The notes beneath the pieces were generated by a model that saw nothing but the letters and a program-made list of their open reading frames with translations, was not told the DNA's origin and ran no database searches. The position numbers and the translations under genes were made by a program. DNA of 64,000 nucleotides. Origin: Candidatus Latescibacterota bacterium. GTDB lineage: Bacteria > Latescibacterota > UBA2968 > GCA-2709665. Positions 38,001-53,370 of this stretch are shown piece by piece (position 1 is the first letter of the stretch; each line of letters starts with the position of its first letter). The stretch lies in assembly GCA_965219455.1 (NCBI GenBank), contig OZ244744.1, forward strand, positions 1,056,001-1,120,000, read 5' to 3'.

Positions 38001-38742
38001 TCTGCGTGGGTATCATCCCGTAGATGAACTCATCGTCCTTGTCCAGCCACCATGAGGCGTCCTTCAGAATTTTCTCCGCATGAATCCCGCCCCACGCCGT
38101 CGAAGCCCGGTTCCGCCGCGCCCGCGCGATTTCGTCCGCTCCCACCGGCCCCACCGACTGGCGTTCACCGGGCGACCGATCGATGCGGTCCAACACCTCC
38201 CGCGTGATCTCCTTCCGTGCCGCTTGAAAATTGTGCTCCCATTCCTCCCGCAGTGCATCCCTGATTTTCAGAAAATCCACCGCCGGACCTTCCGCAAACG
38301 AGCCGTATACCTCAAATTGCGCGACATGCATCCGTCCCGGCGTTGATTCCGGGCCTCCGTCCGCGTTCTGCCATATCCGTACCGCCTCGACCTGCACGGG
38401 ATCGAAAACCAGCAGAGTCTTGAACTCGGGTTCCGGGATGTCCCGCGCCACGATGGCAACCCACGCACCGTCAACCCGGCCCTGAACTTCGACCCTGCGG
38501 GAGGACTCGGGCAAACGTCCCTTCCCCCAGTAAATCTCCACCCGGTCAACCCGGGCGAGGCTCGGAAACACAACCGCCGCCCACTGCGGCAGTCGTTCCG
38601 ACGCCGAGGCCCAGGCCGTATCGCTCGTGGAGGGGTCTTCAGTCGGCCTGACACCATCGTTGATCCTGGATGCGTGGTGGTTGTACGAAATGCTGCTCAC
38701 GTACGGCCGGCTGCCATTCCTGTACAATGCCAGATTTAACAT
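35098..38742 (-). CDS. Large heparinase II/III-like protein with N-terminal discoidin/CBM-like domain
   Basis: N-terminal NLAL...INDG...TAWAS; alpha/alpha-toroid-like middle; C-terminal motifs GHGHRDKL, DLGY, HTASHATVCIDG and YVVDLFRV. Confidence 0.8.
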   Translation of the reverse strand: MLNLALYRNGSRPYVSSISYNHHASRINDGVRPTEDPSTSDTAWASASERLPQWAAVVFPSLARVDRVEIYWGKGRLPESSRRVEVQGRVDGAWVAIVARDIPEPEFKTLLVFDPVQVEAVRIWQNADGGPESTPGRMHVAQFEVYGSFAEGPAVDFLKIRDALREEWEHNFQAARKEITREVLDRIDRSPGERQSVGPVGADEIARARRNRASTAWGGIHAEKILKDASWWLDKDDEFIYGMIPTQNPRAISPSYERGCPIHGGGRKCMRTNTALDYRWQCVIGREWWYNGAVVHNPATGEPVEVWDDDDGWTAPEGFANPGTIYHFNSAWRYYALSKLFFHPYELTIASPDAYTGDTAVVQLSRAYAITGDERYAHRAGVMLNRLAEVYRFYNGTVDEQRPLTRGYLVQVSWEEMPIYNCMTACDLVMDSMLQDEALLAFFRSKGDCDYNGDGRLDSEDIRYNIRHNLFGYMYEWLHRAMAIQTGDYIIREGLVLWALGDLLANEELVEEAIEGRCGLAVNLTNNTFRDGKWWYDAPGYTVSSITRTILDRLFSMKDADRIRDSRLRIRESIEFARNIYCDGRIPAIGDTGGGDSRMKVLDPLANCDVEELAYIHTGDAGYRKRLLALSEGNVDRVRARYADANLLFHADPVRGETEKYVPRTALFHDSGVAILRTGDDIASRKHLVLNYGKGSGGHGHRDKLSINLITFGYDLACDLGYPTTFTHKKVDGWEKHTASHATVCIDGQAQELATGSLRFYGRTPGMQAVCASGKRAYPGCAEVYERTLVMVDAPGSDAYVVDLFRVRGGATHDYMFRSLSGDDGEDFRMEFPAGTETVRQARGTAAGEDVAFGTSPGLGFIKDVGRTFCDGLWSATWRVGDEENTGIRLTMLGDRNREIIHGKGEGYGFFGQSPWDACVAVKHSSDEDETLFAGVLEPYQGRPFVRSVEALTVSGGIGVKVCLDGRTDYVFRRLDKGSVCTAEIDGIPVAFDAEVARITVYESGGCDLHVLQGVRLRFGDEVLEGAALPAGRVDAVDPEDRSVVVALDSGDEIVNGDVIVFRNPAYICNSSCEVISVESMDGNRHRVRLNMSLNLSEGVVRYVDRERGLFATDTCMTKLEACPGGLFDGKAIHSEGKAIGSIETAGPDILGPEERTFTSAIGVDDPATGTINCFRFQDPRYGSALKVGDRFLVCDLNAGDRFEVMRSAHRAVR

Positions 38743-39217: not shown

Positions 39218-41440
39218 ATGCCAGGAATGCACTCTGGCGCGGCAGTTGTCCGAAGCGTGTTACTATTGTGTTTCGTTCTCGCAATGTTCAGCACGCCACC
39301 TTCGTCTGCAAACCAGAGGCCCCGAGTCGCGGTCGTGCTGAGTGGGGGAGGCGCGCGAGGTGGGGTACATATTGGCGTATTGCGCGTGCTCGAGCGCGAA
39401 GGCATACCCATCGATTTGATCGTGGGCGCGAGTTATGGCGCTTTGGTGGGAGGATTGTATGCTGCCGGATATTCTGTTGATGATCTCGAACGCATTGTTG
39501 TAGAAACAGATTGGTGGGAAATGACCAGCAACAGCCCTGACCGCCGTCTGTTGAATTTGCATCGCAAACCAATAGTCGATCGTCAGATGCTTGCATTGCG
39601 CCTCGATAAATTGGATCTGAAATTGCCTTTCGGGATGTTTGCCGGAAAAAAAATCCAGCATTTTCTCTATCAATTGACAATAGGCGCAACCTACCGGGCG
39701 CGAAACGATTTCGATCGCCTTCCAACGCCTTTTCGCGCAATTGCAACAGATATTGTAGCTGGCGAACAGGTCGTTCTAAAAGACGGCTCGCTCGGCGCGG
39801 CAATCAGAGCGAGTATTTCTATCCCCGGGGTATTTGTGCCTGTGAGTACAGGACAAACCCTTCTTGTGGATGGCGGCATTGTCAACAATCTGCCTGTAGA
39901 CGTCGCATTGGACGCCGGCGCTGATCTGGTTATTGCCGTGGATTGTGCCACCCCTTTGCGCACTCAAATGCACGAATTCGAAAATTTTATCGACGTCATC
40001 GATCAGGCTGTCAGTTTTCGAATCGAAGAAAAGAAAATGGTAAATCGAAAACTTGCCCATGTGTTGATGGTGCCCGATTTAAAAGGATTTGATAGCGGCG
40101 ATTTTAATCGCTCACATACAGTGATCCCGATTGGTGAAGAAGAAGCCGAAAAACATCTGGATGCGATCCGGAAAGCGCTGCAAGAGCTCGGCATTTCAAA
40201 ACGCGCTGGAAAGTCAAGAACGTCGATATTGCCGGATGATTTCGACTTTAGAACCTGGGCCGATATACCATCGGATATTGTCATCGACCGGGTGCGGATT
40301 GAGGGTTTGGAGCGCTACACAAGGGGCATTTCCATTGCAAGGTTGGAAAAGTTCATTAATAAGCCGACATCGTTTCGAGAACTGGAAGGTGAATCCGGCC
40401 GGTTATATGCGACGGGATTATTTCAAACGGTCGATTACCAGGTTATCTATCATGAAGACTATACCGAAGTGGTTTTTCAGGTGCTTGAAAACCCCCCAAG
40501 TGAATTGAAAATGGGACTTCGTTACGACAACGATTTTGGGGTTTCGGCACTGGCCGAGCTTGCACACCAAAATGTCTATGGCCGTGTAGTAGAGTTTTAT
40601 TTGCGCGGTTTATTGGGCTCTACCATGAAGTTTGGTGAATTGGATTTGGTTTTTCGCTCATTCAAGGGGCTGAGTCTTCTCGGGGAGATTCACGGCTGGA
40701 AACAAGAACGGGTGGCATATTATGAAGGAGAACCCCAGCAAACGTATTACGAGAGGCGTCTTCGCGGGCGATTGGGCATGCAGATTCTGTCCCATAGCTG
40801 GGGAGGTATCAACCTGGGGTATCAACTTGAGCATATGCTCATTCGCGATGAGCGCCAGGAATATGAGTCCGACTATCTACCCGCCCTTTGGCTATCTGCA
40901 GGTATCGACACGCGAGACGATGTGTTTGTGCCAAGACAAGGCTTCTATTTTAAAACGCAGGCAAAATGGGTCCATCGGACATTTTCACACAAGCAGGTGC
41001 AGACACGGCTCGCGTACTTCGCCAGCCCCCATCCGCAGCTGAGTGTGGGCTTCTGGTCTCACGGAGGCTACGTGACACAGCCCGCACCGATTGATGAAAA
41101 CTTCCTGCTGGGTGGTGCAGGACACTTGAGCAGCGCAGCATTGCGCGTTGTCGGTCTCCGGCGAGACGAACTTTCAGCTTTCAGGTTCGTATCGGCGCGC
41201 ATTTCTATTTGGAGCCACCTGAGATTCTGGGAATCCATACAGCGCAGCGCTATTGGCGTTTTCTATCAGGGCGGGCGGTACTATTTTCCTGCCTATACGG
41301 ATCAGCCATATACCAACATTCATGGTTTTGGTATCGGGGGTTATATCAACACGAAGATTTTTGGCCCCATTCGCATTGATATTGTGAGCACGAAAAAAAG
41401 GGATGTCCAGGTTTATACCGCAATCGGATTTGCGTTTTAA
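39218..41440 (+). CDS. Patatin-POTRA-Omp85 barrel protein (PlpD/type Vd-like), paralog 1
   Basis: Motifs VLSGGGARG, GASYG and VDGG; a POTRA-like segment; DTRDD barrel motif; terminal IGFAF. Start uncertain. Confidence 0.88.
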   Translation: MPGMHSGAAVVRSVLLLCFVLAMFSTPPSSANQRPRVAVVLSGGGARGGVHIGVLRVLEREGIPIDLIVGASYGALVGGLYAAGYSVDDLERIVVETDWWEMTSNSPDRRLLNLHRKPIVDRQMLALRLDKLDLKLPFGMFAGKKIQHFLYQLTIGATYRARNDFDRLPTPFRAIATDIVAGEQVVLKDGSLGAAIRASISIPGVFVPVSTGQTLLVDGGIVNNLPVDVALDAGADLVIAVDCATPLRTQMHEFENFIDVIDQAVSFRIEEKKMVNRKLAHVLMVPDLKGFDSGDFNRSHTVIPIGEEEAEKHLDAIRKALQELGISKRAGKSRTSILPDDFDFRTWADIPSDIVIDRVRIEGLERYTRGISIARLEKFINKPTSFRELEGESGRLYATGLFQTVDYQVIYHEDYTEVVFQVLENPPSELKMGLRYDNDFGVSALAELAHQNVYGRVVEFYLRGLLGSTMKFGELDLVFRSFKGLSLLGEIHGWKQERVAYYEGEPQQTYYERRLRGRLGMQILSHSWGGINLGYQLEHMLIRDERQEYESDYLPALWLSAGIDTRDDVFVPRQGFYFKTQAKWVHRTFSHKQVQTRLAYFASPHPQLSVGFWSHGGYVTQPAPIDENFLLGGAGHLSSAALRVVGLRRDELSAFRFVSARISIWSHLRFWESIQRSAIGVFYQGGRYYFPAYTDQPYTNIHGFGIGGYINTKIFGPIRIDIVSTKKRDVQVYTAIGFAF

Positions 41441-41556
41441 CGTATTGGAGATTCCGGGCTTATCGGTCCTCAGACCCCGACGCGCTGAATCATTCAGGTT
41501 GTTTTTCCGATGGGTTACCCAGAAGGCGGTGGAATCCATCTAATGCAGGGAACCAG

Positions 41557-43806
41557 ATGACGGACGAAAAATTCCACCCGAAAAAACGCGTGAGGGTTCA
41601 GCGCCCATTCGTCCGGAGCGTGTTACTATTGTGTTTCGGTCTTGCCGTGTTCAGCACGCTACCTTCGTCTGCGAATCAGAGGCCCCGTGTCGCGGTCGTG
41701 CTGAGTGGGGGCGGCGCACGCGGAGGGGCGCATATCGGCGTGCTGCGCGTACTCGAGCGCGAAGGCGTACCTATAGACATGATTGTGGGGGTGAGTTACG
41801 GCGCCCTGGTCGGGGGATTGTACGCCGCGGGATTTTCCGTTGACGATCTCGAACGCGTCATTCTGGAGACAGACTGGTGGGAGATTACCAGCAACAGCCC
41901 CGACCGCCGTCTGTCCAACATGAATCGCAAACCAATGGCCGACCGTCAGATGTTCGCGTTGCACCTTGAGGAATTGAAACTGAAATTGCCTTATGGCATT
42001 TTTGCCGGACAAAAGATCCATCAGTTCCTCAATCAACTGACCATTGGCGCAACCTTTAGGGCGCGCAACGACTTCGATCAACTACCAACGCCTTTTCGGT
42101 CAATCGCAACCGACATTCTGTCCGGAGAACAGGTCGTGATCGATAGCGGCTCGCTCGGCGCCGCGATCAGGGCCAGTATTTCCGTTCCAGGGGTATTCGC
42201 GCCGCTGAGTACGGAAAATACCCATCTCGTGGATGGCGGCATCGTCAATAACCTGCCGGTGGACGTCGCATTGGACGCAGGCGCCGATTTTGTCATTGCC
42301 GTAGACTGCGCCACGCCCCTGCGTACATTAAAAGAGGAAATTCAGGATATTATCGACGTCATCGACCAGGCCGTCAGTTTTCGGATAGAAGAAAGAAAGA
42401 TCGCAAACCGGAAACGCTCCCACGTGTTGATATTGCCCGAACTGCACAACTTCGATGGAAGCGATTTCAATCGGTCGTATACCCTGATTCCGATTGGTGA
42501 AAAGGCAACTGAAAAGGAATTGGACACGATCTGGACGGCATTGCAGACGCTTGGAGTACCAAGAAGCGTCGGAAAATCAAGAACGTCCAGATTGCCGGAA
42601 GCGTTCGATATCAATACGTGGGTGGATATACCACCGGACGTGGTAATCGACCGGGTTCGGATAGAGGGTGTACAGCGTTATTCCGAGGCCCTGTTCAAGG
42701 TACGGCTGGAAAAGTTCGTCAACAGGCCGATATCCTTCAAGGAACTCGAACGCGAGTGCGGCCGTCTGCATGCGACCGGATTGTTTCAGACGGTCGATTT
42801 CCACGTCTACTATCATGAAGGCGAGACCGAATTGGTCTTTCACGTGCTCGAAAACCCCCCAAGCGAGTTGAAAGTGGGGATTCATTACAACAACGATTAC
42901 CGGGTCTCGGTGCTGGGCGAGATTGCGCACCAAAGTACACTTGGCCGCATATCGGAACTCCATATTCGCGGACTGCTAGGCAATTTGAATTTTGCTGAAC
43001 TGGTCATGATTTTCCGGACCTCCGGGCGTCTCGGTCTGCTGGGGGAGGTCCAGGCCTGGAACCAGGATCGTTTGTATTTTCGAAATCGGCAGCGTGAGGG
43101 TGGGTACGAAGAACGGCGTTTTCGCTCGCGACTTGGATTGCAGGCACTGTTCCACAGCTGGGGTAGTTTCCAGGCAGGGTACCAGGTGGAGCACGCCCGT
43201 ATCCGCTATGCGGCCCGTTCAATAGGCGATGCATCCGAATTCCTGCCCGGCTTATGGTTATCCGCAGGGATTGACACACGAGACGACTCGATGGTGCCAA
43301 CGCAGGGCGTCTATTTTCAGACACGCGCAAAATGGATTCACCGGACGTTTTCACATAAGCAGATTCAAACCCAACTCGAGTTCTTCGCCAGTCCCCGTTC
43401 GCAATGGAGTGTGGGCTTCTCGTCCATCGGAGGCTACGTGACACAGCCAGCTCCTGTATTCGAATTCTTCCCATTGGGCGGCGCGGGACATTTCAGCAGC
43501 GCGGCATTGCCGGTCGTCGGACTCAAGCGGGATGAACTGCGGGTTGCCAGGTTCGCATCGGTAGGCATATCGCTATGGAGACAGGTTAAATTCTGGGAGT
43601 CGGTGCCGCGCAGTGGTATCGGGATTTTCTATCAGGGCGGACTATATGATATGAGTTCAAATCCGAAGCAGGATTATACACCTATCCACGGCTTCGGAGT
43701 TGGGGGCTATATCAACACGACGCTATTGGGACCCATTCGCGTTGAAATTGTGAGCACCCAGAAGAAGGATATCAAGATTAACGCCTCAATCGGTTTCGGA
43801 TTCTAA
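41557..43806 (+). CDS. Patatin-POTRA-Omp85 barrel protein, paralog 2
   Basis: Motifs VLSGGGARG, GVSYG and VDGG; terminal IGFGF. Co-linear with paralog 1. Confidence 0.88.
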   Translation: MTDEKFHPKKRVRVQRPFVRSVLLLCFGLAVFSTLPSSANQRPRVAVVLSGGGARGGAHIGVLRVLEREGVPIDMIVGVSYGALVGGLYAAGFSVDDLERVILETDWWEITSNSPDRRLSNMNRKPMADRQMFALHLEELKLKLPYGIFAGQKIHQFLNQLTIGATFRARNDFDQLPTPFRSIATDILSGEQVVIDSGSLGAAIRASISVPGVFAPLSTENTHLVDGGIVNNLPVDVALDAGADFVIAVDCATPLRTLKEEIQDIIDVIDQAVSFRIEERKIANRKRSHVLILPELHNFDGSDFNRSYTLIPIGEKATEKELDTIWTALQTLGVPRSVGKSRTSRLPEAFDINTWVDIPPDVVIDRVRIEGVQRYSEALFKVRLEKFVNRPISFKELERECGRLHATGLFQTVDFHVYYHEGETELVFHVLENPPSELKVGIHYNNDYRVSVLGEIAHQSTLGRISELHIRGLLGNLNFAELVMIFRTSGRLGLLGEVQAWNQDRLYFRNRQREGGYEERRFRSRLGLQALFHSWGSFQAGYQVEHARIRYAARSIGDASEFLPGLWLSAGIDTRDDSMVPTQGVYFQTRAKWIHRTFSHKQIQTQLEFFASPRSQWSVGFSSIGGYVTQPAPVFEFFPLGGAGHFSSAALPVVGLKRDELRVARFASVGISLWRQVKFWESVPRSGIGIFYQGGLYDMSSNPKQDYTPIHGFGVGGYINTTLLGPIRVEIVSTQKKDIKINASIGFGF

Positions 43807-44105
43807 CCTTGATTCGACATTTTTCGGGGACGTTAAGTCGCATATACGCAAGTGAATAAAGGCGATTTGACGTCGGATTTCCAGGATACTTAAGGTCACT
43901 GAACGTAAACGGGAAAAACATCCCTTTGGACGACCTTTACGCCCCGTTTCGGAAGGTTTCGTCGCGGTGCCGCGTTGCTGTTTCTTTCGAATTGAAGCTA
44001 ATGTCCAGGGTTATTCCTGGTTGCGGCGCGTTGAAGTGCTGCAGAATCGAATTTAACCGGACAGCGTCAGGTTGTCCGAATCAACCTGAATCACAAAGGA
44101 CAAGA

Positions 44106-46826
44106 ATGTCATTCACCAGGTGGAACCCCCTTTTTTTCATGCTCGTGCTCGCTTTTTCCGTTCCCGCAGAATCCGCCTCTCAGAAGGATTCACCGGCTCC
44201 AGGGTCCAGGATTCATCGATCCGTTCCTCCGCCTGGAGCAAAAACCCATAAGGTGATTCCAGGTGAGAGATTTCGCGCAGACGGATTCAAACGCTGGTTC
44301 TACGGCGACAATTACCGTGATCTCTGGAATACCCCCGTCGAGGTCGCGGTTCTTGACCTGGACAGCGTGGGAGGCGGACTTACGCCCCTTCGCACCGGCG
44401 GATTCGGACAATCCATTTCTCTTCACTTTACAGGCAAAAACGGCCGTCGTTATACAGTGCGTTCGCTGGACAAAGATGCCACCAGGAGGGTCCCCGACGG
44501 AATCGCGGATACGTTCGTAGGCGACGTCCTTCAGGATCTGATCTGCGCGATGCTTCCGACGGGCGCGCTCGTAGTCGATCCGCTGATGAAGGCCGCAGGC
44601 ATCCTCCATTCCAGGCATACGCTCGTCGTCATTCCGGACGACCCCAGGCTTGGGGAATTCCGTGGAGCGTTTGCCGGTCTGATTGGCATGCTGCAGGAAC
44701 ACCCTTCCGAAGGACCGGACGATACGCCCGGCTTCGCAGGTTCCCGGAAGGTCAGCGGCACGGAGAAGGTGATGAAAACCCTGGAAAAAAGCCCGTGTAA
44801 CCGCGTGGATGCCCGCGCCTTTCTGAAAGCGAGACTGATGGATTTCCTCATCAACGACAAGGACCGCCATCACGGGCAGTGGAGATGGGCGCGGTTCCCC
44901 GACGGCGATTGCCATACATGGCTCCCGATACCGGAGGATCGCGATCAGGCATTTATCCATTTCGAAGGGCTTGCCATGGCAATGGCAAGACGACAATTCC
45001 CCATACAGATCCAGTTTCAGAGGACGTATCCCAGTTTAGTCGGTCTCACGCTGACCGGGTGGGAAATAGACCGCGAATTCCTGGTCGAACTCGACAGGGC
45101 TGCGTGGGATTCGGTAGTAACGTCCTTTTGCGCGAGTCTGACCGACCGGGTTATCGACGACGCCGTGAGAGAGTTGCCGCCTCCGTATTACAAGAGGGTT
45201 GGAAAGACCCTGGCCGAAGCCCTCAAATCGAGGCGGAACGCTTTACCGGAGTTTGCCGCCAGTTACTATGAATTGATTTTACACGAGGCCGAAATATGGG
45301 CAACCGACAAAGACGAATACGTCCAGTGTGAGCACCGTCCGAACGGCGATCTCAGAGTCCGAATTGGCCTGATGGAGGGCGTTGGTGGTGAAAGGAAGAC
45401 GCCTTATTTCCAAAGGACGTTTCATCCCGAAGAAACCAGGGAAGTCAGAATACACCTCCGGGGAGGAGAAGACCGCGCCGAAATATCGGGAACGAAAGGG
45501 CGGATTGTCGTTCGCATCGATGGCGGGGGCGGAGATGACACGCTCACGAACTCATCCGTCGCCGGCGCCTCCAAGACGAGGTTTTATGATTCACGTGGAT
45601 CGAACCGGTTCGTCAAGGGCAACGGAGCGAGGATCGACGAGCGTCCTTACCAGCGGCCACATGGATCGCATACGCCGAATGCCAGGTACGCACTGGATTG
45701 GGGAAAGCGCACTGCGAATCTCCCGATTTTTATGATAAATCCGGACCTGCACGTGTACGCGGGAGTGCAGCATATCCGGCAGTATTACGGCTATCGGAAA
45801 GACCCGTTCTCTTCACAACACGATTTTACCGTCGGTCTTGCAGCACTCGACGGTCCCAAAAGCGTCAAGCCGTTTGTTTCCTATATGGGAAACTTTCGCC
45901 AGCCGGTGCGCTCCTTCGATGCCAGGGTCCACGTTGGGTACTCCGGGATCCAGCTGCTCAGATTCAACGGTTTCGGAAACAACACGGAGATTTCGCAACC
46001 GAAGTCCTATTACAAGTTGGAGCAGGGACTCCTCGTTTTCGCACCGGCGCTCGGGTTCCGGGCAAAAGACCATGAAGAAAACGTTCCGAGCGTTGGTATC
46101 GAGTCGCTTCGCTCGAAATTAAACGTTGACTTTGGGCCGATCATAAAGTATTCAAATGTACCGCTCAGTTCCAACAAGGGGAAGTACGTCGGTTCGCTCG
46201 ATCAACCCATGTACGGTACGGGTTCCTTCACTCAGGCAGGCGCACAGGCGGAAGTCATCTGCGATATGCGTGACAATCCGTTGTACTCCACTCAGGGGAT
46301 CTGGGTCAGGGTGGGCGGCGCCGTATACCCTGGGTTCGGGACTGTGGAATCGACATTCGGAAACATAGATCTGGTAGCCAGTACTTACCTGACCGGGCGT
46401 ATGCCGACGAACCCGACACTTGCTCTTCGAGCGGGAGGCAAGAAGGTATGGGGGACTTTCCCCTTCTACGAAAGCGCCTTTCTGGGCGGTCCCGGTGCGC
46501 TTGGCGCCGGCATTTCCAGAGGCAACCTGCGCGGCTTCCGGAAAAACCGGTTCGCCGGAGACGCTTCCCTGTATGGAAATTCGGAGCTTCGGCTGGTTCT
46601 CACAAAAATTGAACTGTTCGTGGAGGGAGAGCTGGGGCTGTTCGGCACCGCGGACGCCGGAAGGGTGTTTTATGACGGAGATCCTGCAAGTGCCGACAGA
46701 TGGCACACCAGTATCGGGGGTGGATTCTGGCTGTCCTTCCTCCAGCGCAGGCACACCTTGAGCGCGGCTGTCGTAAAAGGCGACGATCTGACGGGAGTAT
46801 ATCTGCGCGGCGGTTTCATGTTCTAA
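44106..46826 (+). CDS. Omp85/BamA-TamA family barrel protein with N-terminal atypical kinase-like domain, paralog 1
   Basis: Signal peptide; motifs GGFGQS, DFLINDKDRHHGQW and PEDRDQAF; barrel motif LRGFRKNRFAG; terminal GFMF. AAGGA RBS. Confidence 0.82.
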   Translation: MSFTRWNPLFFMLVLAFSVPAESASQKDSPAPGSRIHRSVPPPGAKTHKVIPGERFRADGFKRWFYGDNYRDLWNTPVEVAVLDLDSVGGGLTPLRTGGFGQSISLHFTGKNGRRYTVRSLDKDATRRVPDGIADTFVGDVLQDLICAMLPTGALVVDPLMKAAGILHSRHTLVVIPDDPRLGEFRGAFAGLIGMLQEHPSEGPDDTPGFAGSRKVSGTEKVMKTLEKSPCNRVDARAFLKARLMDFLINDKDRHHGQWRWARFPDGDCHTWLPIPEDRDQAFIHFEGLAMAMARRQFPIQIQFQRTYPSLVGLTLTGWEIDREFLVELDRAAWDSVVTSFCASLTDRVIDDAVRELPPPYYKRVGKTLAEALKSRRNALPEFAASYYELILHEAEIWATDKDEYVQCEHRPNGDLRVRIGLMEGVGGERKTPYFQRTFHPEETREVRIHLRGGEDRAEISGTKGRIVVRIDGGGGDDTLTNSSVAGASKTRFYDSRGSNRFVKGNGARIDERPYQRPHGSHTPNARYALDWGKRTANLPIFMINPDLHVYAGVQHIRQYYGYRKDPFSSQHDFTVGLAALDGPKSVKPFVSYMGNFRQPVRSFDARVHVGYSGIQLLRFNGFGNNTEISQPKSYYKLEQGLLVFAPALGFRAKDHEENVPSVGIESLRSKLNVDFGPIIKYSNVPLSSNKGKYVGSLDQPMYGTGSFTQAGAQAEVICDMRDNPLYSTQGIWVRVGGAVYPGFGTVESTFGNIDLVASTYLTGRMPTNPTLALRAGGKKVWGTFPFYESAFLGGPGALGAGISRGNLRGFRKNRFAGDASLYGNSELRLVLTKIELFVEGELGLFGTADAGRVFYDGDPASADRWHTSIGGGFWLSFLQRRHTLSAAVVKGDDLTGVYLRGGFMF

Positions 46827-47161
46827 GAGCCTGCCGGAGATCCGCAGTTCTGCCCTTATGCCGTTGTAACTTTACCAGTCTATATTCACTGAGAATAGTG
46901 GGTATTGTCTTCATGCGGTTCCTCCCGGTCCGTCAAGGAACTACCGGACAGGATCCGATTTCTTGTTCACAACGACTCAACCTTAATTCGTCTTATTTCG
47001 GCGAAGTCACGCTATACCTTATATATTGACGTGGCAGTGAAAGACCTCCCCGGATCTCAGTTAACGGGGGTCAACCGGACTTGCGGTCTGACTTATCGCA
47101 GAAATGCATTCATCTGTCCAGTTTCCCGTTGTCAAAGCCACCAAGTAGCCGAAGGGCAATA

Positions 47162-49864
47162 ATGGGTTTATCCAAATGGGGTTTCCTTGCATTCCTGGGG
47201 TTTGCTCTATCTGTTCCGGCAGAATCCACGCCTCAGAAGGATTCACCGGCTCCAGGGCACAGAATTCACCGGTCGATTCCGCCGCCTGGCGCGAAGACCC
47301 ATTTGGTGATTCCTGGTGAGAGATTCCGCGCCGGTTGGTTCCAACGCTGGTTTTACGGCAGCGATTACCGGGATCTCTGGACTACCCCTATCGAGATTGT
47401 GGTCCTCGACCTGGACAGTATTGGAGGTGGCTTGACGCCGCTTCGCACCGGCGGCGCAGGACAATCTATATCTCTGCATTTTAGAGGGCAAGACGGACGC
47501 CGATATACGGTTCGGTCGTTGGATAAAGACCCTACCAAGAGGATATGGGACGAACTCAGGGATACGATCGTGGAGGACGTCCTGCAGGACTTGATCAGTG
47601 CGCTTCTACCCACCGGAGCGCTTGTTGTGGACCCGCTGATGGAAGCCACGGGTATTCTGCACGCGAAGCATACGCTCGTCGTAATCCCCAACGACACCAG
47701 ACTCATGGAGTTCCAAGGGGAGTTTGCTGGCTTAGTAGGACTGCTGCAGGAACACCCTTCCGAAGGGCCCGACGATACGCCCGGTTTTGCCCATTCCCGG
47801 AAGATCAGTGGAACGAAAAAGCTGCGGAAACACCTTGAAAAAGGCCCGTGCAACCGCGTCGATGCACGTGCCTATCTGAAAGCGAGGCTGTTGGATCTTC
47901 TCATCAACGACAAGGACCGTCACTACGATCAGTGGAGGTGGGCGCGGTTTCCCGATGGCGGCTGCTATACCTGGCTTCCAATACCCGAGGACCGGGACCA
48001 GGCATTTATCGACTTGGACGGATTTGCTATGGCATTGGTGCGTAGAGCACACCCCAGGCAAATCGAGTTCGACGACAAATATCCAAGTCTGGTAGGCCTA
48101 TCGACTACCGGCTGGGAAATGGATCGCGAGTTCCTGGTCGAACTCAATTGGACTGCATGGGATTCGGTAATAGCGGAGTTTCGCGGGGACTTGCCGGATT
48201 CGGTCATGGAGAATGCGGTTCGGAAGCTCCCGCAACCGTATTACGAGATCGTTGGAGAATCTCTTGCACAGGCGCTTAAAGCGAGGCGGGACGCATTGCC
48301 TGGATTCGCCCTGAGATACTATAAGTTGATCACCCGAGAAGCCGAAATCCAGGCGACTGATCGGGACGAATACGTCCTGTGTGAGCATCTTCCGAGCGGT
48401 GACCTCGCGGTACGCATTGGCCTAACGGAGGGCGACGAGAGAGAACGGCAGACGGCCTATTTCCGGCGGACCTTCCGCGCCCAGGAAACCAGTGAGGTCC
48501 GAATATACCTGCGTGGAGGAGACGATCAATCGGAGATAGTGGGGAGCGGGGGACGGATTGCCGTTCGCATCGATGGCGGCGGCGGGAACGACTCGTTTAC
48601 AAACGAATCCCGGGCTGGTACTTCAAAGACCCGGTTTTATGATTATCGTGGAAAAAATCGGTTCAGTAAAGGCAGTGGTGCGAAAATCGACGAGCGACCC
48701 TACACACGTCCTCCCGCACGACGCCTTACCGCGCGGTATGCACTCGACTGGGGCATGCAATCAATTACGTTCCCCATTGTCATGGCGGGACCGGACCTGG
48801 GCGTTTTCGTGCGAATGCTCCATAGCCGGCAGTATTTCGGCTATCGAAAAACTCCTTTCTCTTCGCAACTTTTTTTTAACGTGGGGCTGGCGAGAAACAA
48901 CAATCTTCTGCCCTTTGTTTCCTTTACCGGGAACTTCCGCCAACTGTTTCACGACGTCGACATGAAGGTCGACTTCAAGTACTCCGGAATCCAGACGATC
49001 CGGTTCAATGGATTCGGCAACGGAACAGAACTTCGGAATCCATCCTCCTTCTACAATTTACGGCAGAAGCATGTCGTATTTGCACCGGCCATCGAGTTTC
49101 GAACGGATCTGCACAAAGATAACAGGCACGGTGGGATAGCACCGGTTCGCTCGAAACTGAACGTTGGCCTGGGGCCGATCGTCAAGTATTCAAACACACC
49201 TCTGGATACCAATAGGGAGACCTACATAGGTTCGCTCAATCTCCCGCAATACGGTACGGGTTCCTTCGGCCAGGCAGGCGTCCAGGGTGAAATCAGGTTC
49301 GACACGCGTGATAATCCGGGGTTCGCCACCCGGGGATTCCTGGTCAGTGTTTCTGGCGCCGTCTACCCGGGAGTCTGGAACGTGGAATCGGCCTTTGGTA
49401 GAACAAACGGAGCAGCACACATTTACATGACGGCTCGAATGCCGACTGACCCGACCCTTGCCCTAAGAGCCGGTGGCAAGAAGGTGTGGGGACATTTTCC
49501 CTTCCACGAAAGCGCCTTCCTTGGCGGTCCCGGCTTTGCCGGCGGTGGCGCGCACAGTGGCAATTTACGCGGTTTCCGGAAAAACCGGTTCGCCGGAGAT
49601 ACGTCGTTGTATGGAAACTCCGAGCTACGGTTGGTTCTGGCCAAAATCAGGATCCTGGTACCAGGAGAGTTCGGCCTGTTCGGGATGGTGGATACAGGCC
49701 GGGTTTTCTATGACGGAGACCCGCACAATGGGAACACATGGCATACCAGCCTGGGTGGCGGAATATGGTTGTCATTCCTCAGGCGACGGCAGACCTTGAG
49801 CGTCGCAATCGTGAATGGAGACGATTTGACGGGAGTATATCTGCGCTCTGGTTTTTTGTTCTAA
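47162..49864 (+). CDS. Omp85/BamA-TamA family barrel protein with N-terminal atypical kinase-like domain, paralog 2
   Basis: Signal peptide; motifs GGAGQS, DLLINDKDRHYDQW, PEDRDQAF and LRGFRKNRFAG; terminal GFLF. Confidence 0.82.
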   Translation: MGLSKWGFLAFLGFALSVPAESTPQKDSPAPGHRIHRSIPPPGAKTHLVIPGERFRAGWFQRWFYGSDYRDLWTTPIEIVVLDLDSIGGGLTPLRTGGAGQSISLHFRGQDGRRYTVRSLDKDPTKRIWDELRDTIVEDVLQDLISALLPTGALVVDPLMEATGILHAKHTLVVIPNDTRLMEFQGEFAGLVGLLQEHPSEGPDDTPGFAHSRKISGTKKLRKHLEKGPCNRVDARAYLKARLLDLLINDKDRHYDQWRWARFPDGGCYTWLPIPEDRDQAFIDLDGFAMALVRRAHPRQIEFDDKYPSLVGLSTTGWEMDREFLVELNWTAWDSVIAEFRGDLPDSVMENAVRKLPQPYYEIVGESLAQALKARRDALPGFALRYYKLITREAEIQATDRDEYVLCEHLPSGDLAVRIGLTEGDERERQTAYFRRTFRAQETSEVRIYLRGGDDQSEIVGSGGRIAVRIDGGGGNDSFTNESRAGTSKTRFYDYRGKNRFSKGSGAKIDERPYTRPPARRLTARYALDWGMQSITFPIVMAGPDLGVFVRMLHSRQYFGYRKTPFSSQLFFNVGLARNNNLLPFVSFTGNFRQLFHDVDMKVDFKYSGIQTIRFNGFGNGTELRNPSSFYNLRQKHVVFAPAIEFRTDLHKDNRHGGIAPVRSKLNVGLGPIVKYSNTPLDTNRETYIGSLNLPQYGTGSFGQAGVQGEIRFDTRDNPGFATRGFLVSVSGAVYPGVWNVESAFGRTNGAAHIYMTARMPTDPTLALRAGGKKVWGHFPFHESAFLGGPGFAGGGAHSGNLRGFRKNRFAGDTSLYGNSELRLVLAKIRILVPGEFGLFGMVDTGRVFYDGDPHNGNTWHTSLGGGIWLSFLRRRQTLSVAIVNGDDLTGVYLRSGFLF

Positions 49865-50158
49865 TGTCTCTCTCGGAAAAGTCGTTGACCAGTTTTTGAA
49901 ATGTCCTATGTTCTCTCATGCGCGCCTGGCGCACCCTTCAACAATTAAGGGCATCATGGGGAGAGCGACCTCGGAAGCCGAGCAATCGCGTAAATCTGTT
50001 TCCGGGCTATAACACCCGTAGCCCGTCAAAATGCCTTTACGTTCGTCTTCGTGAACACAGATGTCGCATTATTGACAGATTAAAACGCCACAGATTTTAC
50101 GAGAGCCGGACAGAATTCGGATTCTCCGTCAGGCTACTAGCCAGTCAAGGAGGATGCT

Positions 50159-51097
50159 GTGTCTAACAACATCATCGTACGTCTGCTCATCTATTATATC
50201 ACCTGGCTTGTGATTCTCAATGTGATCTTTCATGTTTTTCCCGAAATTCTCCATTACGTCGCCAAGGAGCGTGAACGCATATTCGTGGGAAAATCGCTCG
50301 GCTCGGGCGTCGACGCTGCGGTTCCACTGGGAAACATCAAGGAAGGGATAAACCGCCTTCTCGATCCGGCACATACGATTCCGGTTGTGGTCGCGCTGGT
50401 ACTGGCCTTCGGGGTTACCCTCCCGATTACCTGGGTATATGCCTGGACGCATTCGCCCAAGAAATACAGCCAATCCTTTTTACACACGCTGCTCGTGATG
50501 CCAGTCGCCATCGCGCTGGTTGTCTTTCTGGTTAAAGGCAGTCTTGCCCTTGCGTTCAGCCTGGCTGGCATCGTGGCCGCCGTCAGCTTTCGGATCTCGC
50601 TCAGAGCGACTATGGATGCCGTGTACATGTTTATGGTTATAGGGATCGGGCTGGCCGCCGGTACTCAGCTTACGACAGTGGCCTACATCGCATCGTTGGC
50701 TTTTGTCACCATAACGCTGGGCGTCTGGAAGACCAATTATGGAGCACAACCTCCTGTACTTTCCGGCTGGAGAATTGTCTCGCCGAGGAAATCGGTCGAA
50801 ACCTCCGAATCAGAGGATAATGCAGCCGGGAATTCCGTTGATTTCCGGATCGCCGTGCATGCAACGAACGTCAATGCAGCGCAAAAAGCAGCAGGCCCGA
50901 CCCTTGACTCCGATAGCATAAAGTGGAAGGTCGCAGATATGATCGAGAATGAAGATGGAACGGTCGTCGTTATGTATGATGTCTCTTCGAATCAATCCGT
51001 CGCTCTGCCCTCTCTGGTCCGGGATATTGAGAAGAGAGGAAAAAAGCGTATTAAAGGCGTCAAACTGACCGAAGGTGAGACAGATCAGAGTTTATAA
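50159..51097 (+). CDS. DUF4956 family membrane protein
   Basis: Motifs SLALAFSLAGIVAAVSFR and DAVYMFMVIGIGLAAG; several TM helices followed by a soluble C-terminal domain. Confidence 0.82.
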   Translation: MSNNIIVRLLIYYITWLVILNVIFHVFPEILHYVAKERERIFVGKSLGSGVDAAVPLGNIKEGINRLLDPAHTIPVVVALVLAFGVTLPITWVYAWTHSPKKYSQSFLHTLLVMPVAIALVVFLVKGSLALAFSLAGIVAAVSFRISLRATMDAVYMFMVIGIGLAAGTQLTTVAYIASLAFVTITLGVWKTNYGAQPPVLSGWRIVSPRKSVETSESEDNAAGNSVDFRIAVHATNVNAAQKAAGPTLDSDSIKWKVADMIENEDGTVVVMYDVSSNQSVALPSLVRDIEKRGKKRIKGVKLTEGETDQSL

Positions 51098-51178
51098 CCT
51101 GTAATCTAAAAGCCTCCAGTCAACAGGGAAAATCATGCAGGCAGGAACTGACGGGAATTGATAACGGTATAATTGTAA

Positions 51179-52147
51179 ATGAAGAACTTTAGAGAAAAAT
51201 ACACGCAGGACTACCCTGGTCTCGGCTTTCTTCTCTACATGCTGACGATGGGATCAGGAACGGCCGCAACCGCGGAATTCACTGGAGATGCCTTAAACGC
51301 AAATCCGGAAACTTCAGGTGTCCTCCCTTCCGCGGACACAATGACGGCATCCAAAAGGAAGATATCCCTCGAAAGCTATACCCTGGATCCGGAGACCGCG
51401 ACGCACTGGAAGCTTCCCAGGGATCTCGAGGAGATCTCCGGTCTGGCAATGACCGGAGACGAACGACTCCTGGCGCACAACGATGAGAGAGCGATCATTT
51501 TCGAGATCGATTATCTGCAAGGGTCAATCGTAAAGGCATTCCAACTGGCGGATATGAATCACCCGGTTGCCGGTGATTTCGAGGGCATTGCCGCGACTGA
51601 CGACGGGATCTTCCTGGTCACAAGTACGGGGCGGCTGTACGAGTTTCATGAGGGAATTGCCGGGGAGTCCGTTCTGTTTAACGTCTACACGACCGGGGTT
51701 GGCAGAGATTTCGAAATAGAGGGCCTGACGTATGACCGGGGCCTTCGCGTACTCCTGCTGATGTGCAAGGATGCTCGCAGCCTGGAAACGGAAGGGCAGC
51801 TGGCGATATACCAGTGGTCAGTTGACGAAAAACAGATGAAAGAAAATGGACGCATCCTGATACGAGTGAAAGAATTCGCCCGACACGTCAGTGGACGGAA
51901 ATTCCATCCTTCGGGAATCGAGCGGCATCCGGTTTCCGGGAATTATTTCGTCGTAGCTGGCCGTCAGGGGGCGATCGCCGAAATTACGCCGGCTGGACAG
52001 GTCGTTGCCGTCAGGAAGTTTCCCGCCAGGTGGCATCGTCAGGTTGAAGGTATTACCTTCGCTGCGGACGGCACGCTGATCGTTGCCGATGAAGGCGCGG
52101 GGAGGAAAGGCAGGCTGACCCTCTATCCGGTTTCGGACGGTTGGTAA
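51179..52147 (+). CDS. SdiA-regulated (YjiK-like) beta-propeller protein
   Basis: Repeating motifs LEEISGL, AHNDE, DFEGIA, EIEGL, PSGIE and QVEGITF...ADEG. Confidence 0.8.
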   Translation: MKNFREKYTQDYPGLGFLLYMLTMGSGTAATAEFTGDALNANPETSGVLPSADTMTASKRKISLESYTLDPETATHWKLPRDLEEISGLAMTGDERLLAHNDERAIIFEIDYLQGSIVKAFQLADMNHPVAGDFEGIAATDDGIFLVTSTGRLYEFHEGIAGESVLFNVYTTGVGRDFEIEGLTYDRGLRVLLLMCKDARSLETEGQLAIYQWSVDEKQMKENGRILIRVKEFARHVSGRKFHPSGIERHPVSGNYFVVAGRQGAIAEITPAGQVVAVRKFPARWHRQVEGITFAADGTLIVADEGAGRKGRLTLYPVSDGW

Positions 52148-52278: not shown

Positions 52279-53370
52279 CTATGCGGATATCGGCCTGCGC
52301 TCCATAAACGACCTTGTGATGTCGATAATCAACCTGATATCCTCCCGCGCTTCGGACGCAGGCGTCCGGCAGGCGTCCTGCCCGACAATACATGAATGAA
52401 AGTGGCGCAGTTCGCGCACAAACGGGCTTTCCCACGCCACCGCCGGCCGACGGGTGGACGTCTCGCCCCGGACGTTCATTTCATACACAACAACCGTGGA
52501 CAGAATCCCCCTCGCGAAACCCGTCGGATAGGAAACCAGCACGCGCCGGTCGCCGCCGTACACTTCCAGCGTCTCCTTGAAGTCCCAGAGTTCCGGCAGG
52601 TCGACCCAGGACGCGACGCAACGTGCGCCGTTGCTGTACGACAGCACCGTCGAAATCGCCCGCCCTTCGTTCCACACCTCCGTGCTGATCACCGACTCCG
52701 GCATCCCCAGCATCACACGAAGACAGTACAAATCGTGGATCATGCTTCCCGAAAGCGTGAAGAATGCCCGAACCGCGTCTCCCGGCGCCTCACCGATCGC
52801 CTCAAGTACCGCCGCGGCCCTGGCTGCGTGCGTCTCCGCGACCTGTGCCGCCGGCAAATCGTCAAACCGCATGAGCCTGTATTGGCGCAGATGCAGCCGG
52901 TTGTCCGGGTGCAGATGATTCACCTGAACGAATCGAATATCCGACATCCCGTCCACCTCGGCTTTAGCGGTCTCGAACGCCGGATCGTACACTTTCATAT
53001 ACCCGGCCTGCGCGACCACGCCAGCCCGCTCGGCGGCCTGTGCGATCGTGTCCGCCTCTCTTAGGGAAAAACAGACCGGCTTTTCAATCAACACATGTTT
53101 GCCCGCGTCCATCGCGGCGACGGCCGCTTCGGTCTTCGGGTCTGAATGGCACAGGAGCACCGCCTCCACGTCGTCCGACCTGACAAGCCTGCGGAAATCC
53201 GTCACCGACGCCGGAACATGGAATGACTTCGCCGCCCAGTCAGCCAATCCGGGCGACAGATCGCATACGGTCGTGACCTCGAACTCCTCCCTCAACCCTG
53301 CCAGATTCGGCAGGTGCTGCACCTGCGCGATTGCGCCGCATCCCACCACCCCCAGCTTGACGGGTGCCAT
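52279..53370 (-). CDS. Gfo/Idh/MocA family oxidoreductase
   Basis: Motifs GVVGCGAIA, GKHVLIEKP and MIHD. Confidence 0.9.
   Translation of the reverse strand: MAPVKLGVVGCGAIAQVQHLPNLAGLREEFEVTTVCDLSPGLADWAAKSFHVPASVTDFRRLVRSDDVEAVLLCHSDPKTEAAVAAMDAGKHVLIEKPVCFSLREADTIAQAAERAGVVAQAGYMKVYDPAFETAKAEVDGMSDIRFVQVNHLHPDNRLHLRQYRLMRFDDLPAAQVAETHAARAAAVLEAIGEAPGDAVRAFFTLSGSMIHDLYCLRVMLGMPESVISTEVWNEGRAISTVLSYSNGARCVASWVDLPELWDFKETLEVYGGDRRVLVSYPTGFARGILSTVVVYEMNVRGETSTRRPAVAWESPFVRELRHFHSCIVGQDACRTPASEAREDIRLIIDITRSFMERRPISA

Follow-up and report, generated by a model that had tools for sequence, protein, structure and literature searches.

Across 13 kb of a Latescibacterota genome, six adjacent genes on one strand encode four proteins with an enzyme-like N-terminal domain followed by an Omp85 barrel, an inner-membrane protein and a beta-propeller. 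Do these genes form one cell-envelope system, and what would a kinase-like domain do on an outer-membrane barrel? We analyzed the locus within the window (the whole stretch of DNA under study, 64,000 nucleotides), within its genome, in a sample of 81 Latescibacterota genomes and in a linkage set of 79 related loci. The latter come from several phyla, many on short contigs, and carry the gene for the kinase-like domain fused to a barrel (the kinase-barrel gene). All six plus-strand ORFs that the first-pass annotation had placed here were found. The coordinates below correspond to their most likely ATG starts, taken from the translations.

39218..41440, plus strand: g1, predicted type Vd protein like PlpD, patatin phospholipase and Omp85 barrel in one chain, 740 aa counted from ATG
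41557..43806, plus strand: g2, paralog of g1, 749 aa
44106..46826, plus strand: g3, predicted kinase-like domain, beta-sandwich and Omp85 barrel, 906 aa; signal peptide ~1-24
47162..49864, plus strand: g4, paralog of g3, 900 aa, every catalytic-type residue retained
50159..51097, plus strand: g5, inner-membrane DUF4956 protein, 312 aa
51179..52147, plus strand: g6, exported YjiK-like (SdiA-regulated/phytase-like) beta-propeller, 322 aa

The cluster is flanked on both sides by unrelated minus-strand genes and has a G+C content of 0.51-0.56, compared with 0.59-0.65 in the flanks. Intergenic gaps are 299 bp (g2/g3), 335 bp (g3/g4) and 294 bp (g4/g5). RNA-library contigs, few, of low depth and subject to possible DNA in the library, map to g3, g4 and g6, which is a weak hint of expression; one such low-depth contig (51017-51211), with the same possibility of DNA, spans the g5-g6 junction. 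The sole RNA run containing part of the stretch is labeled as sponge metagenome. The same window contains a PhoX-like gene 14 kb upstream of the cluster.

Judging from sequence, g1 and g2 are patatin phospholipase autotransporters of the PlpD type (type Vd) arranged in tandem, an already known kind. Both match Pfam Patatin (E 4.9e-33 and 1.1e-32, respectively) and Omp85 (E 7.1e-8 and 8e-7), the barrel scoring above the Pfam cut-off, and the two proteins are 67% identical across 732 aa. The PlpD passenger (5fqu) is matched by residues 33-307 of g1 (E 2.2e-63). The g1/g2 alignment contains GGGARG, GASYG/GVSYG and VDGG, which we take to mark the oxyanion glycines and the Ser-Asp dyad of patatin. 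In g1 and g2, the BamA model TIGR03303 aligns at 355-643 and 460-701, a span that would include a POTRA-like part; no separate POTRA model matched them. In overall plan, a patatin passenger followed by an Omp85 barrel, the pair corresponds to PlpD (5fqu, 5fya), as the first-pass annotation had proposed.

The next two proteins, g3 and g4, each with a signal peptide, are 67% identical across 906 aa and represent the only two kinase-barrel copies in the window's genome. The full-length AlphaFold2 model of g3 (pLDDT 88, pTM 0.87) comprises three parts.

44238..45281, plus strand: predicted protein-kinase-like domain of g3, residues ~45-392; model pLDDT 95
45285..45695, plus strand: all-beta linker (beta-sandwich) of g3, residues ~394-530; two conserved GGxD turns; not POTRA
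45705..46826, plus strand: Omp85-type beta-barrel of g3, residues ~534-906; LRGF loop-6 motif

Several searches identify the C-terminal part as an Omp85 barrel. Pfam matches Omp85 alone, below its 24-bit cut-off, in both g3 (E 0.0012, 18.9 bits) and g4 (E 6.3e-5, 23.1 bits), and NCBIfam Omp85_fam matches them at E 3.3e-20 and 4e-21. Foldseek with the g3 AlphaFold model retrieved Sam50, BamA and TamA (E 1.6e-9 to 1e-8), the g3 family profile matched F. nucleatum BamA (2.4e-8), and DSSP outlines ~16 long strands in residues 534-902. The Omp85 loop-6 motif, (V/I)RG(F/Y), is present in both g3 and g4 as NLRGFRKNRFAGD; in the same region R809 and G810 are conserved in at least 90% of 80 relatives and R815 is invariant. 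The linker consists of strands only (DSSP of the model), with G453, G454, D456, G473, G474 and D478 near-invariant in 80 sequences, and its profile weakly matches designed Ig-like proteins (E 0.0015). A search of the first 646-665 aa of g3 and g4 gave no POTRA match at E <= 10, nor was there one in 50 relatives, and the g3 model, all-beta at residues 394-511, shows no beta-alpha-alpha-beta-beta unit.

For the N-terminal domain, sequence libraries and predicted structure give different answers. Pfam yielded no match at E <= 10 in g3 or g4 and a match at E <= 1 in 0/50 relatives, and a PDB sequence/profile search with the g3 family found no kinase, the solid matches being to barrels only. The model of the g3 domain alone (pLDDT 95), on the other hand, has the two-lobed kinase fold according to both Foldseek and VIA-align. 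The best Foldseek match is CtkA (2.2e-6), followed by PI4KII-alpha (6.5e-5) and CotH (7.2e-5); HipA and Fam20C also matched, and of the 27 matches at E <= 0.001 those listed are for the most part kinases. VIA-align against 48,161 chains gave CotH 5jda (Z 14.0, rmsd 4.2, 247 residues aligned), PI4KII-alpha (Z 13.8) and CtkA (Z 13.0). The kinase label assigned to g3 and g4 in the first-pass annotation thus finds its backing in predicted structure.

Bacillus cereus CotH (5jd9/5jda), human PI4KII-alpha (4pla/4hnd) and H. pylori CtkA (3akj-3akl) share with g3 the fold (~215-260 residues aligned, Z 13-14) and the succession of elements, from glycine loop and basic residue through catalytic loop to metal-binding Asp, at an identity of just 8-12%. 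In g3 these elements are the Gly-rich loop G90/G91, R119/K123, D251-x-D253-R254-H255-x-x-Q258 and D278-x-D280; they follow the canonical order, their roles being assigned by position on the DSSP map rather than by superposition. All 80 aligned relatives keep G91, R119, K123, D251, R254, D278 and D280, and at least 90% keep D253, H255 and Q258. Unlike the three known kinases, g3 has the catalytic loop D-x-D-R-H-x-x-Q, and its domain is predicted to leave the cytoplasm and to be anchored at the outer membrane. We assign the N-terminal domain of g3 and g4, as modeled, to an atypical protein-kinase fold with high confidence. CotH, PI4KII-alpha and CtkA are tied, so any of the three may be the closest relative, and the substrate may be a protein or a lipid.

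Two family models were not matched. The CotH family model (PF08757) gave no match at E <= 10 in g3 and g4 or at E <= 1 in 50 relatives. Hhalign of the g3 domain profile against 16 CotH domains was weak (E 0.0031, probability 10%); this weak alignment pairs D253..Q258 with CotH D..N, D278/D280 with the invariant CotH Asp and R376/R377 with the invariant CotH Arg. The catalytic loop of PI3/PI4-kinases is DRHxxN; that of g3 and g4 is DRHxxQ, and there was no Pfam match to that family either, the 50 relatives included.

Might the N-terminal domain be inactive and the whole protein serve as a scaffold, for example in outer-membrane biogenesis or tethering? A purely structural role would accord with the Omp85 hallmarks of the barrel and with the absence of a sequence-level kinase match (Pfam; 50 relatives). 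We consider it highly improbable, as neither the glycine loop nor the catalytic-type Asp, Lys and Arg vary across several phyla. Moreover, the kinase-barrel gene is missing from most families of the phylum (present in 20/81 genomes) and hence is no housekeeping assembly factor.

In general plan, an enzyme at the N-terminus and then an Omp85 barrel, g3 and g4 follow PlpD, but in place of patatin and POTRA they have the kinase-like domain and the all-beta linker. By analogy with PlpD and CtkA, the barrel might move a kinase passenger to the surface or release it onto a host or neighbor. The shared domain order is joined here by the adjoining PlpD-like g1 and g2, by CtkA as the best Foldseek match and by the sponge label of the RNA run. 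However, a type Vd-like mode of action is very unlikely given that g3 and g4 have no POTRA domain (Pfam at E <= 10; model) and that the family is common in Gemmatimonadota and Ignavibacteria MAGs from soil and sediment. A role internal to the envelope is also favored by the conserved partner in the inner membrane and by linkage to PPK1 (see below).

The two remaining proteins agree with the labels DUF4956 and YjiK-like propeller given to them in the first-pass annotation. g5 combines several hydrophobic helices with ~110 soluble residues at the C-terminus. It matches DUF4956 (PF16316; E 3e-9, 37.3 bits against a cut-off of 30.6) over model positions 8-107 of 169 only, and a genome search found it to be the only DUF4956 gene (39.8 bits). 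In Pfam, g6 scores 35.1 bits with Phytase-like and 31.3 bits with SdiA-regulated/YjiK (PF06977; cut-off 21), and its family, in which D133, F134, E135, E181, E290 and E305 are invariant, resembles E. coli YjiK (3qqz, PF06977) also in a profile match (E 5.8e-10). We know of no function assigned to YjiK and of no kinase-barrel gene beside it; homologs of g6, unlike YjiK, are tightly linked to such a gene.

The kinase-barrel family is large (3087 representative clusters at 50% identity, E <= 1e-3), with carriers in Latescibacterota, Poribacteria, Acidobacteriota, KSB1, Gemmatimonadota, Ignavibacteria/Chlorobi and Bacteroidota. Its commonest partner is the propeller, found nearby in 36/79 loci (within ~1.3 kb in 35 of the 36) and absent within reach in 43/79, many contigs being short. 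DUF4956 is nearby in 27-28/79 loci, but in 0/28 of those from Ignavibacteria/Chlorobi/Bacteroidota; both partners are present in 8/8 loci of the window's closest clade. PPK1 lies within 10 kb in 19/79 loci and not nearby in 60/79. The chance expectation would be ~0.4% if PPK1 is taken as single-copy, as in the window's own genome, where it is located ~350 kb from the cluster. Other neighbors include HD-PycTM (14 loci), PAP2 (12), His_Phos_1 (7) and, in some loci, HAD. The kinase-barrel module thus appears tied to polyphosphate metabolism, as proposed earlier.

Patatin-Omp85 behaves differently: it adjoins the kinase-barrel gene in 1/79 loci (L004), yet stands directly upstream of it in 4/5 genomes of the window's bacterial family. 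It is therefore a lineage-specific neighbor outside the conserved core. This bears on the reading of the first-pass annotation, in which patatins, barrel-tethered kinases, DUF4956 and propeller jointly remodel outer-membrane phospholipid or (poly)phosphate as a single six-gene system, with DUF4956 as the putative handler of the phosphoryl donor. One strand throughout, one low-G+C block, the adjacency in the family and in L004, the lipid kinase PI4KII-alpha tying for best structural match and PAP2 lipid-phosphatase-type genes near the module in 12/79 loci would all suit such a system. Against this, besides the single patatin locus among 79, the pairs g2/g3, g3/g4 and g4/g5 are 299, 335 and 294 bp apart, and no RNA-library contig maps to g1 or g2, within sparse data that may simply have gaps. 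We regard a single six-gene system as unlikely. The 4/5 adjacency may leave room for a functional patatin-kinase tie limited to this lineage; we class it as neighborhood only.

The phylum-wide distribution places the other four genes in a broader context. Among the 81 genomes, 20 have the kinase-barrel gene, 37 DUF4956, 19 VTC and 26 CotH. Each DUF4956 genome (37/37) carries at least one of two genes, kinase-barrel in 19 and VTC in 19; a single one, G079, carries both, each adjoining its own DUF4956 copy. The distance between the kinase-barrel gene and DUF4956 is at most ~3 kb in 18/19 genomes. DUF4956 is present in 19/19 VTC genomes, 17 of which also have CotH; the three lie together on one contig in at least 12 genomes. 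G079 aside, the kinase-barrel genomes (19) gave neither a VTC nor a CotH match; the window's 5.84 Mb genome (100% completeness) has no match to VTC PF09359, and none anywhere to CotH PF08757.

That DUF4956 genes accompany VTC and CotH, part of the first-pass annotation, has been published for Gram-positive pel loci: in two reports, cotH, polyphosphate polymerase and DUF4956 genes are contiguous (Whitfield et al., 10.1101/768473 = PMC7112168; PMC12345266), and loss of CotH-like and DUF4956-type genes in S. intermedius lowers Pel levels and aggregation (PMC12345266). With the pel set as described there, the module shares DUF4956, an exported kinase of CotH-like fold (predicted) and a tie to a polyphosphate enzyme, and within the phylum one arrangement takes the place of the other from genome to genome. 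The idea that the kinase-barrel stands in for CotH fits this complementary distribution well. Unlike CotH of the pel set, the predicted kinase of g3/g4 is joined to an Omp85 barrel and is not matched by the CotH model of Pfam. The linked polymerase is PPK1 (19/79 related loci) rather than VTC, which the window's genome does not have, and the commonest partner is the YjiK-like propeller. The DUF4956 protein is also longer (312 aa compared with ~230), matching the first 100 model positions only. Complementary distribution together with the shared DUF4956 makes the module look like the equivalent, in cells with two membranes, of the CotH-VTC-DUF4956 set of Gram-positives.

The same evidence bears on phosphate scavenging or uptake as an explanation. 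There, the propeller would be a phytase-like phosphoesterase, the barrel would admit or bind phosphorylated polymers, the kinase-like domain would be a binding or pseudo-enzyme part, and PPK1 linkage would reflect shared phosphate-starvation control. The Phytase-like match of g6 (35.1 bits), the phosphatase-type neighbors in related loci (PAP2 12, His_Phos_1 7, some HAD) and the upstream PhoX-like gene would agree with it. However, invariance of the kinase-type catalytic residues in 80/80 relatives would be unusual for a pseudo-enzyme, and Omp85 barrels are not, to our knowledge, nutrient pores. In addition, the exact complementarity with VTC/CotH points to a role shared with a polyphosphate-making system, not to hydrolysis. 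We find scavenging quite unlikely.

We favor, with modest confidence, the view that the 13 kb comprises two units: the patatin pair (g1, g2) and a conserved envelope module (g3-g6), the counterpart of the CotH-VTC-DUF4956 set. The patatin unit travels with the module only in the window's bacterial family. The module itself is widely conserved and undescribed; our literature search found no paper describing the kinase-barrel family or module. Of the earlier interpretation, then, the kinase fold, the DUF4956-VTC-CotH background, the stand-in for CotH and the polyphosphate link survive; the single six-gene system does not. We infer that an exported CotH/PI4KII-like kinase domain, duplicated in g3 and g4, would be held at the outer membrane, on whichever side it may face, by its own C-terminal Omp85 barrel. 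It would transfer phosphoryl groups outside the cytoplasm onto an envelope protein, lipid or glycan. The propeller g6 may be its partner, binding the substrate or acting as an opposing phosphoesterase, and g5 may be the inner-membrane link to cytoplasmic phosphate/polyphosphate metabolism, served by PPK1 here and by VTC in the classical set.

We know of no ATP available in the periplasm, and the putative kinase activity therefore needs an unproven donor. A speculative and rather doubtful extension is that polyphosphate, not ATP, is the phosphoryl donor beyond the inner membrane. Made by PPK1 or VTC, it (or its energy) would be passed on by DUF4956, either through the inner membrane or along it. 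Tethered to the outer membrane, the CotH-like kinase would use it to phosphorylate, or add polyphosphate to, envelope targets, and the propeller would reverse or guide the reaction. If true, bacteria would have here a general way of coping with a periplasm devoid of ATP, one shared by the Gram-positive CotH-VTC-DUF4956 set.

Very few bacterial kinases are known to work outside the cytoplasm, and the periplasm is not known to contain ATP; here a large family puts a predicted, intact-looking kinase domain on an outer-membrane barrel. Testable roles follow for three families without a function, namely DUF4956, YjiK-like propellers and the new kinase-like domain. With cultivable carriers of the locus such as Rufibacter psychrotolerans (locus L080), the kinase-barrel module provides a concrete handle on whether polyphosphate drives cell-envelope phosphorylation.

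The six envelope genes of the first-pass annotation are confirmed as a run of head-to-tail open reading frames on the + strand (39.0-52.1 kb). Given the most plausible ATG starts, the block (g1-g6) and the two unrelated genes flanking it are arranged as follows.

35098-38742, - strand: heparinase II/III-like protein gene (1214 aa, F5/8 type C domain), flanking
39218-41440, + strand: g1, patatin-Omp85
41557-43806, + strand: g2, patatin-Omp85
44106-46826, + strand: g3, kinase-barrel (kinase-like domain, all-beta linker, Omp85 barrel)
47162-49864, + strand: g4, kinase-barrel
50159-51097, + strand: g5, DUF4956
51179-52147, + strand: g6, YjiK-like propeller
52279-53370, - strand: GFO/IDH/MocA oxidoreductase gene, flanking

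Successive genes of the block are separated by 116, 299, 335, 294 and 81 bp, and its G+C content is 0.51-0.56 compared with 0.59-0.65 in the flanks. The host genome is a single 5.84 Mb contig. A repeat search returned nothing beyond the paralogous coding stretches of g1/g2 and g3/g4, whereas the promoter and terminator scan is uninformative on operon structure, since its counts were near shuffled expectation. One RNA-recorded run, labelled as a sponge metagenome, contains 5% of the sampled words, and its seven contigs of low depth (2-5) fall on g3 (two), g4, the g5-g6 junction (51017-51211) and g6. This cover is sparse and the uncovered parts, g1 and g2 included, are uninformative; it gives a weak hint that the g3-g6 unit is transcribed with g5 and g6 on a shared transcript, and DNA carry-over is a possible source of the same contigs.

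Several other features of the window were recorded. Upstream of the cluster, on the - strand, are a PhoX-like alkaline phosphatase gene (24103-25734) and a sulfatase gene (27286-28803), which together with the heparinase gene look like functions for scavenging polysaccharide and phosphate. IceA-like endonuclease and N6/N4 DNA methylase genes (22468-23752, - strand) coincide with a G+C dip (0.486, 22-24 kb) and probably form a small acquired restriction-modification island. The first 6 kb contains remnants of mobile elements: a DDE transposase gene (4401-5882, - strand) and a gene whose product resembles pRiA4 ORF3 and has a LexA-type DNA-binding domain (817-1722).

To find out which genes accompany the kinase-barrel gene elsewhere, we scanned one genome per species. 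This yielded at least 595 confirmed loci, of which 79 were kept, from Latescibacterota, Poribacteria, Acidobacteriota, KSB1, Gemmatimonadota, Ignavibacteria/Chlorobi, Calditrichaceae and Bacteroidota. Neighbours were counted up to a distance of 10 kb from the kinase-barrel gene. Both tblastn and a clean profile detected the propeller in 36 of the 79 loci; in 35 of these it lies no more than about 1.3 kb away, and in 30 it shares the strand of the kinase-barrel gene. DUF4956 accompanies the gene in 27 (tblastn) to 28 (profile) loci, and a second kinase-barrel copy in 12. When the count is restricted to the 47 loci whose flanks extend at least 3 kb in each direction, the propeller occurs in 26 and DUF4956 in 22. 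The kinase-barrel, DUF4956 and propeller genes constitute a conserved three-part module. Like the CotH-VTC-DUF4956 set, this module includes DUF4956, and it appears to be connected with polyphosphate metabolism through PPK1. The latter first surfaced when all locus ORFs were clustered and the clusters named with Pfam; an independent tblastn search using the PPK1 of the window's own genome as the query placed it near the kinase-barrel gene in 19/79 loci. PPK1 often abuts the module (in one locus, L047, the order is PPK1-propeller-kinase-barrel). We estimate the chance of encountering it in a 20 kb neighbourhood at ~0.4%, if a single copy is typical; in the window's own genome it is single-copy and ~350 kb from the cluster. 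HD-PycTM membrane proteins (14 loci), PAP2 (12) and His_Phos_1 (7) also recur in the neighbourhood.

Neighbours of the kinase-barrel gene by clade (number of loci)
Window's closest clade: 8 loci; propeller 8; DUF4956 8; PPK1 1; HD-PycTM 0
Gemmatimonadota: 43 loci; propeller 13; DUF4956 20; PPK1 12; HD-PycTM 2
Ignavibacteria/Chlorobi/Bacteroidota: 28 loci; propeller 15; DUF4956 0; PPK1 6; HD-PycTM 12

DUF4956 was found in none of the 28 Ignavibacteria/Chlorobi/Bacteroidota loci. A protein with HD and PycTM domains occurs in 12 of them, often alongside PPK1 and His_Phos_1, and could be taking the place of DUF4956 (named HD-PycTM loci: L038, L043, L049, L055, L063, L072, L074, L075, L078 and L080). 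Ser/Thr-kinase-TPR and adenylate-cyclase-TPR proteins, some with TolB_N/FlgO-like parts, recur beside the module in Gemmatimonadota and Ignavibacteria (L014, L017, L030, L033, L034 and L037) and may be regulators. Identity to g3 is 56-69% in loci L003-L010 compared with about 40% in Gemmatimonadota. As the former carry the MAG labels Latescibacteria, Poribacteria, Acidobacteria, Vicinamibacteria and KSB1, these identities and the low G+C of the block suggest that the module spread horizontally among these lineages.

The patatin pair belongs to a different category. In Pfam, g1 and g2 (67% identical) hit Patatin (E 4.9e-33 and 1.1e-32, respectively) and, above the cut-off, Omp85; the solved structure of the PlpD passenger (5fqu) is a match to g1 (E 2.2e-63). 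Both proteins also contain the glycine-rich, GxSxG and DGG motifs. They are therefore ordinary PlpD-type (type Vd) proteins, just as had been proposed. Across the related loci, however, a patatin-Omp85 gene is near the kinase-barrel gene in only one of 79 (L004, within 10 kb). In the window's own family it immediately precedes the kinase-barrel gene in 4/5 genomes, each gene being single-copy, so the six-gene block is a family-level arrangement in which both genes are duplicated here. The first-pass annotation had treated all six genes as one system and proposed gene neighbourhood as its check: the association of the kinase-barrel gene with the propeller and DUF4956 holds across phyla, whereas that with the patatins is confined to the family, and the six-gene block including them is not a conserved core.

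We then analyzed how the kinase-like domain, DUF4956, VTC and CotH are distributed over 81 genomes of the phylum. The kinase-like domain is present in 20 genomes and, by family, in 5/6, 13/24 and 1/14 members of three families (f1, f2 and f3) and in no other family. DUF4956 was found in 37/81, VTC in 19/81 and CotH in 26/81 genomes. Each of the 19 genomes with VTC also has DUF4956, and 17 of them have CotH; the three genes are on one contig in at least 12, which bears out the expected association of DUF4956 with VTC and CotH. DUF4956 likewise accompanies the kinase-like domain in 19 of the 20 genomes that carry it; the remaining one, G013, has only a 234-residue fragment of the domain. In 18 genomes DUF4956 lies within about 3 kb of the kinase-barrel gene; in G047 its match is weak and falls on a separate contig, the assembly comprising 280 contigs. 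Both arrangements coexist in G079 alone, each accompanied by a DUF4956 copy of its own, and the other 19 kinase-domain genomes gave no VTC or CotH matches. Every DUF4956 genome has either the kinase domain or VTC, so the two sets cover all 37. The genomes are related and the counts represent non-independent events; nevertheless, the pattern is exact. Thus, in the phylum sample the kinase-barrel gene replaces VTC/CotH as the partner of DUF4956, as the idea of barrel-tethered kinases in place of CotH had anticipated. In 14 control genomes, DUF4956 and VTC occur in the same three, and CotH in those three and B. subtilis.

Beside Gram-positive pel operons, the genes cotH, polyphosphate polymerase, DUF4956 and DUF4832 are reported to be contiguous (Whitfield et al., 10.1101/768473, PMC7112168). 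In S. intermedius, deletion of the CotH-like and DUF4956-type genes is reported to reduce Pel and aggregation, and a role in phosphate metabolism is suggested (10.1101/2024.04.20.589940, PMC12345266). We found no description of a kinase-Omp85 fusion or of a g3-g6-type module in the non-subscription literature searched.

The kinase-barrel proteins g3 and g4 (67% identity) are the sole two copies in the genome. Contigs that jump from g3 to the corresponding point of g4 (45650-49570) occur in the RNA-library run as well as in three DNA runs, one junction joining 45901 to 48972 with 29 other letters between; they may represent a single or hybrid copy in related strains, or paralogues collapsed by assemblers. 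The family is large: 1398 of 8000 scored candidates from 90% clusters matched, all named either 'BamA/TamA family outer membrane protein' or 'hypothetical', and the 50% library gave 3087 representative clusters at E <= 1e-3, nearly all of 840-940 aa. An AlphaFold2 model of full-length g3, built from an 80-sequence alignment (pLDDT 88, pTM 0.87), consists of an N-terminal helix resembling a signal peptide, an alpha/beta domain (residues ~45-392), a unit made of beta-strands only (394-511) in which two GGxD turns are conserved, and a barrel (534-906). Foldseek matched the barrel to Sam50, BamA and TamA (E about 1e-9), and both proteins carry the conserved loop-6 LRGF motif. No POTRA domain is seen in the model. 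Within the linker (g3 residues 394-530, window 45285-45695), G453, G454 and D456 as well as G473, G474 and D478 are near-invariant; these turns may resemble calcium-binding beta-roll repeats. Relatives of 610-670 aa without the barrel span the whole N-terminal part (P0139, P0155, P0167, P0175, P0215 and P0218), and nameless Protein Atlas clusters of ~465-517 aa resemble the g3 N-domain. These may be barrel-less exported forms or else truncated gene calls.

Sequence searches assigned no family to the N-domain. For the first ~530 residues of g3/g4 there was no match in Pfam (E <= 10), in NCBIfam or, by phmmer, in the PDB; none of 50 relatives had an N-terminal Pfam match at E <= 1, and the family profile retrieved only BamA-type barrels from the PDB. 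As Foldseek with the full-length model also returned barrels only, the N-domain was folded alone (residues 30-400, pLDDT 95). The isolated domain matched CtkA (2.2e-6), PI4KII-alpha (6.5e-5) and CotH (7.2e-5), followed by HipA and Fam20C. VIA-align, a structure search independent of Foldseek (48,161 chains), placed B. cereus CotH on top (Z 14.0, rmsd 4.2, 247 aligned), tied with PI4KII-alpha (Z 13.8) and CtkA (Z 13.0); the CotH kinase structures are PDB 5jd9/5jda. G91, R119, K123, D251, R254, D278 and D280, all at canonical kinase positions, are invariant in 80/80 sequences, D253, H255 and Q258 are conserved in at least 90%, and the canonical residues are retained in both g3 and g4. A profile comparison with 16 CotH domains from genomes of the phylum is weak (E 0.0031, probability 10%), yet in it the catalytic loops coincide, as do the metal-binding Asp and an invariant C-terminal Arg. 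The 'kinase' label therefore stands at the level of fold and motifs, but not as a sequence-library match to CotH or any other named kinase family. The N-domain would be an active phosphotransferase. Its presumed site of action is extracytoplasmic: the periplasm if it adopts the default topology of Omp85 proteins, or the cell surface if it is threaded through in the manner of a type Vd passenger.

The sole DUF4956 gene of the genome, g5, scores above the cut-off (37.3 bits) over just the first 100 of 169 model positions; judging from its translation, it has additional hydrophobic helices at the N-terminus and ends in a soluble part. The S. intermedius DUF4956-type protein is described as an MgtC-like membrane domain with a cytoplasmic ACT domain (10.1101/2024.04.20.589940, PMC12345266). 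MgtC on 10% of the members of one DUF4956 cluster in the Protein Atlas agrees weakly with this description. The propeller, g6, matches the Pfam families Phytase-like and SdiA-regulated/YjiK, and its family profile (29 sequences) is similar to the solved E. coli YjiK (E 5.8e-10). Acidic residues D133, E135, E181, E290 and E305 are invariant in the family, many members of which have, as judged by eye, lipoprotein-like N-termini. Complex prediction for g3 residues 30-530 with propeller residues 62-322 scored 0.00, which gives no verdict and is evidence neither way.

Taken together, we propose that the exported kinase-like domain would transfer phosphoryl groups outside the cytoplasm, that DUF4956 would connect it to cytoplasmic phosphate or polyphosphate, and that the YjiK-like propeller would serve as its partner or antagonist. 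In the boldest reading, the phosphoryl donor would be polyphosphate rather than ATP.
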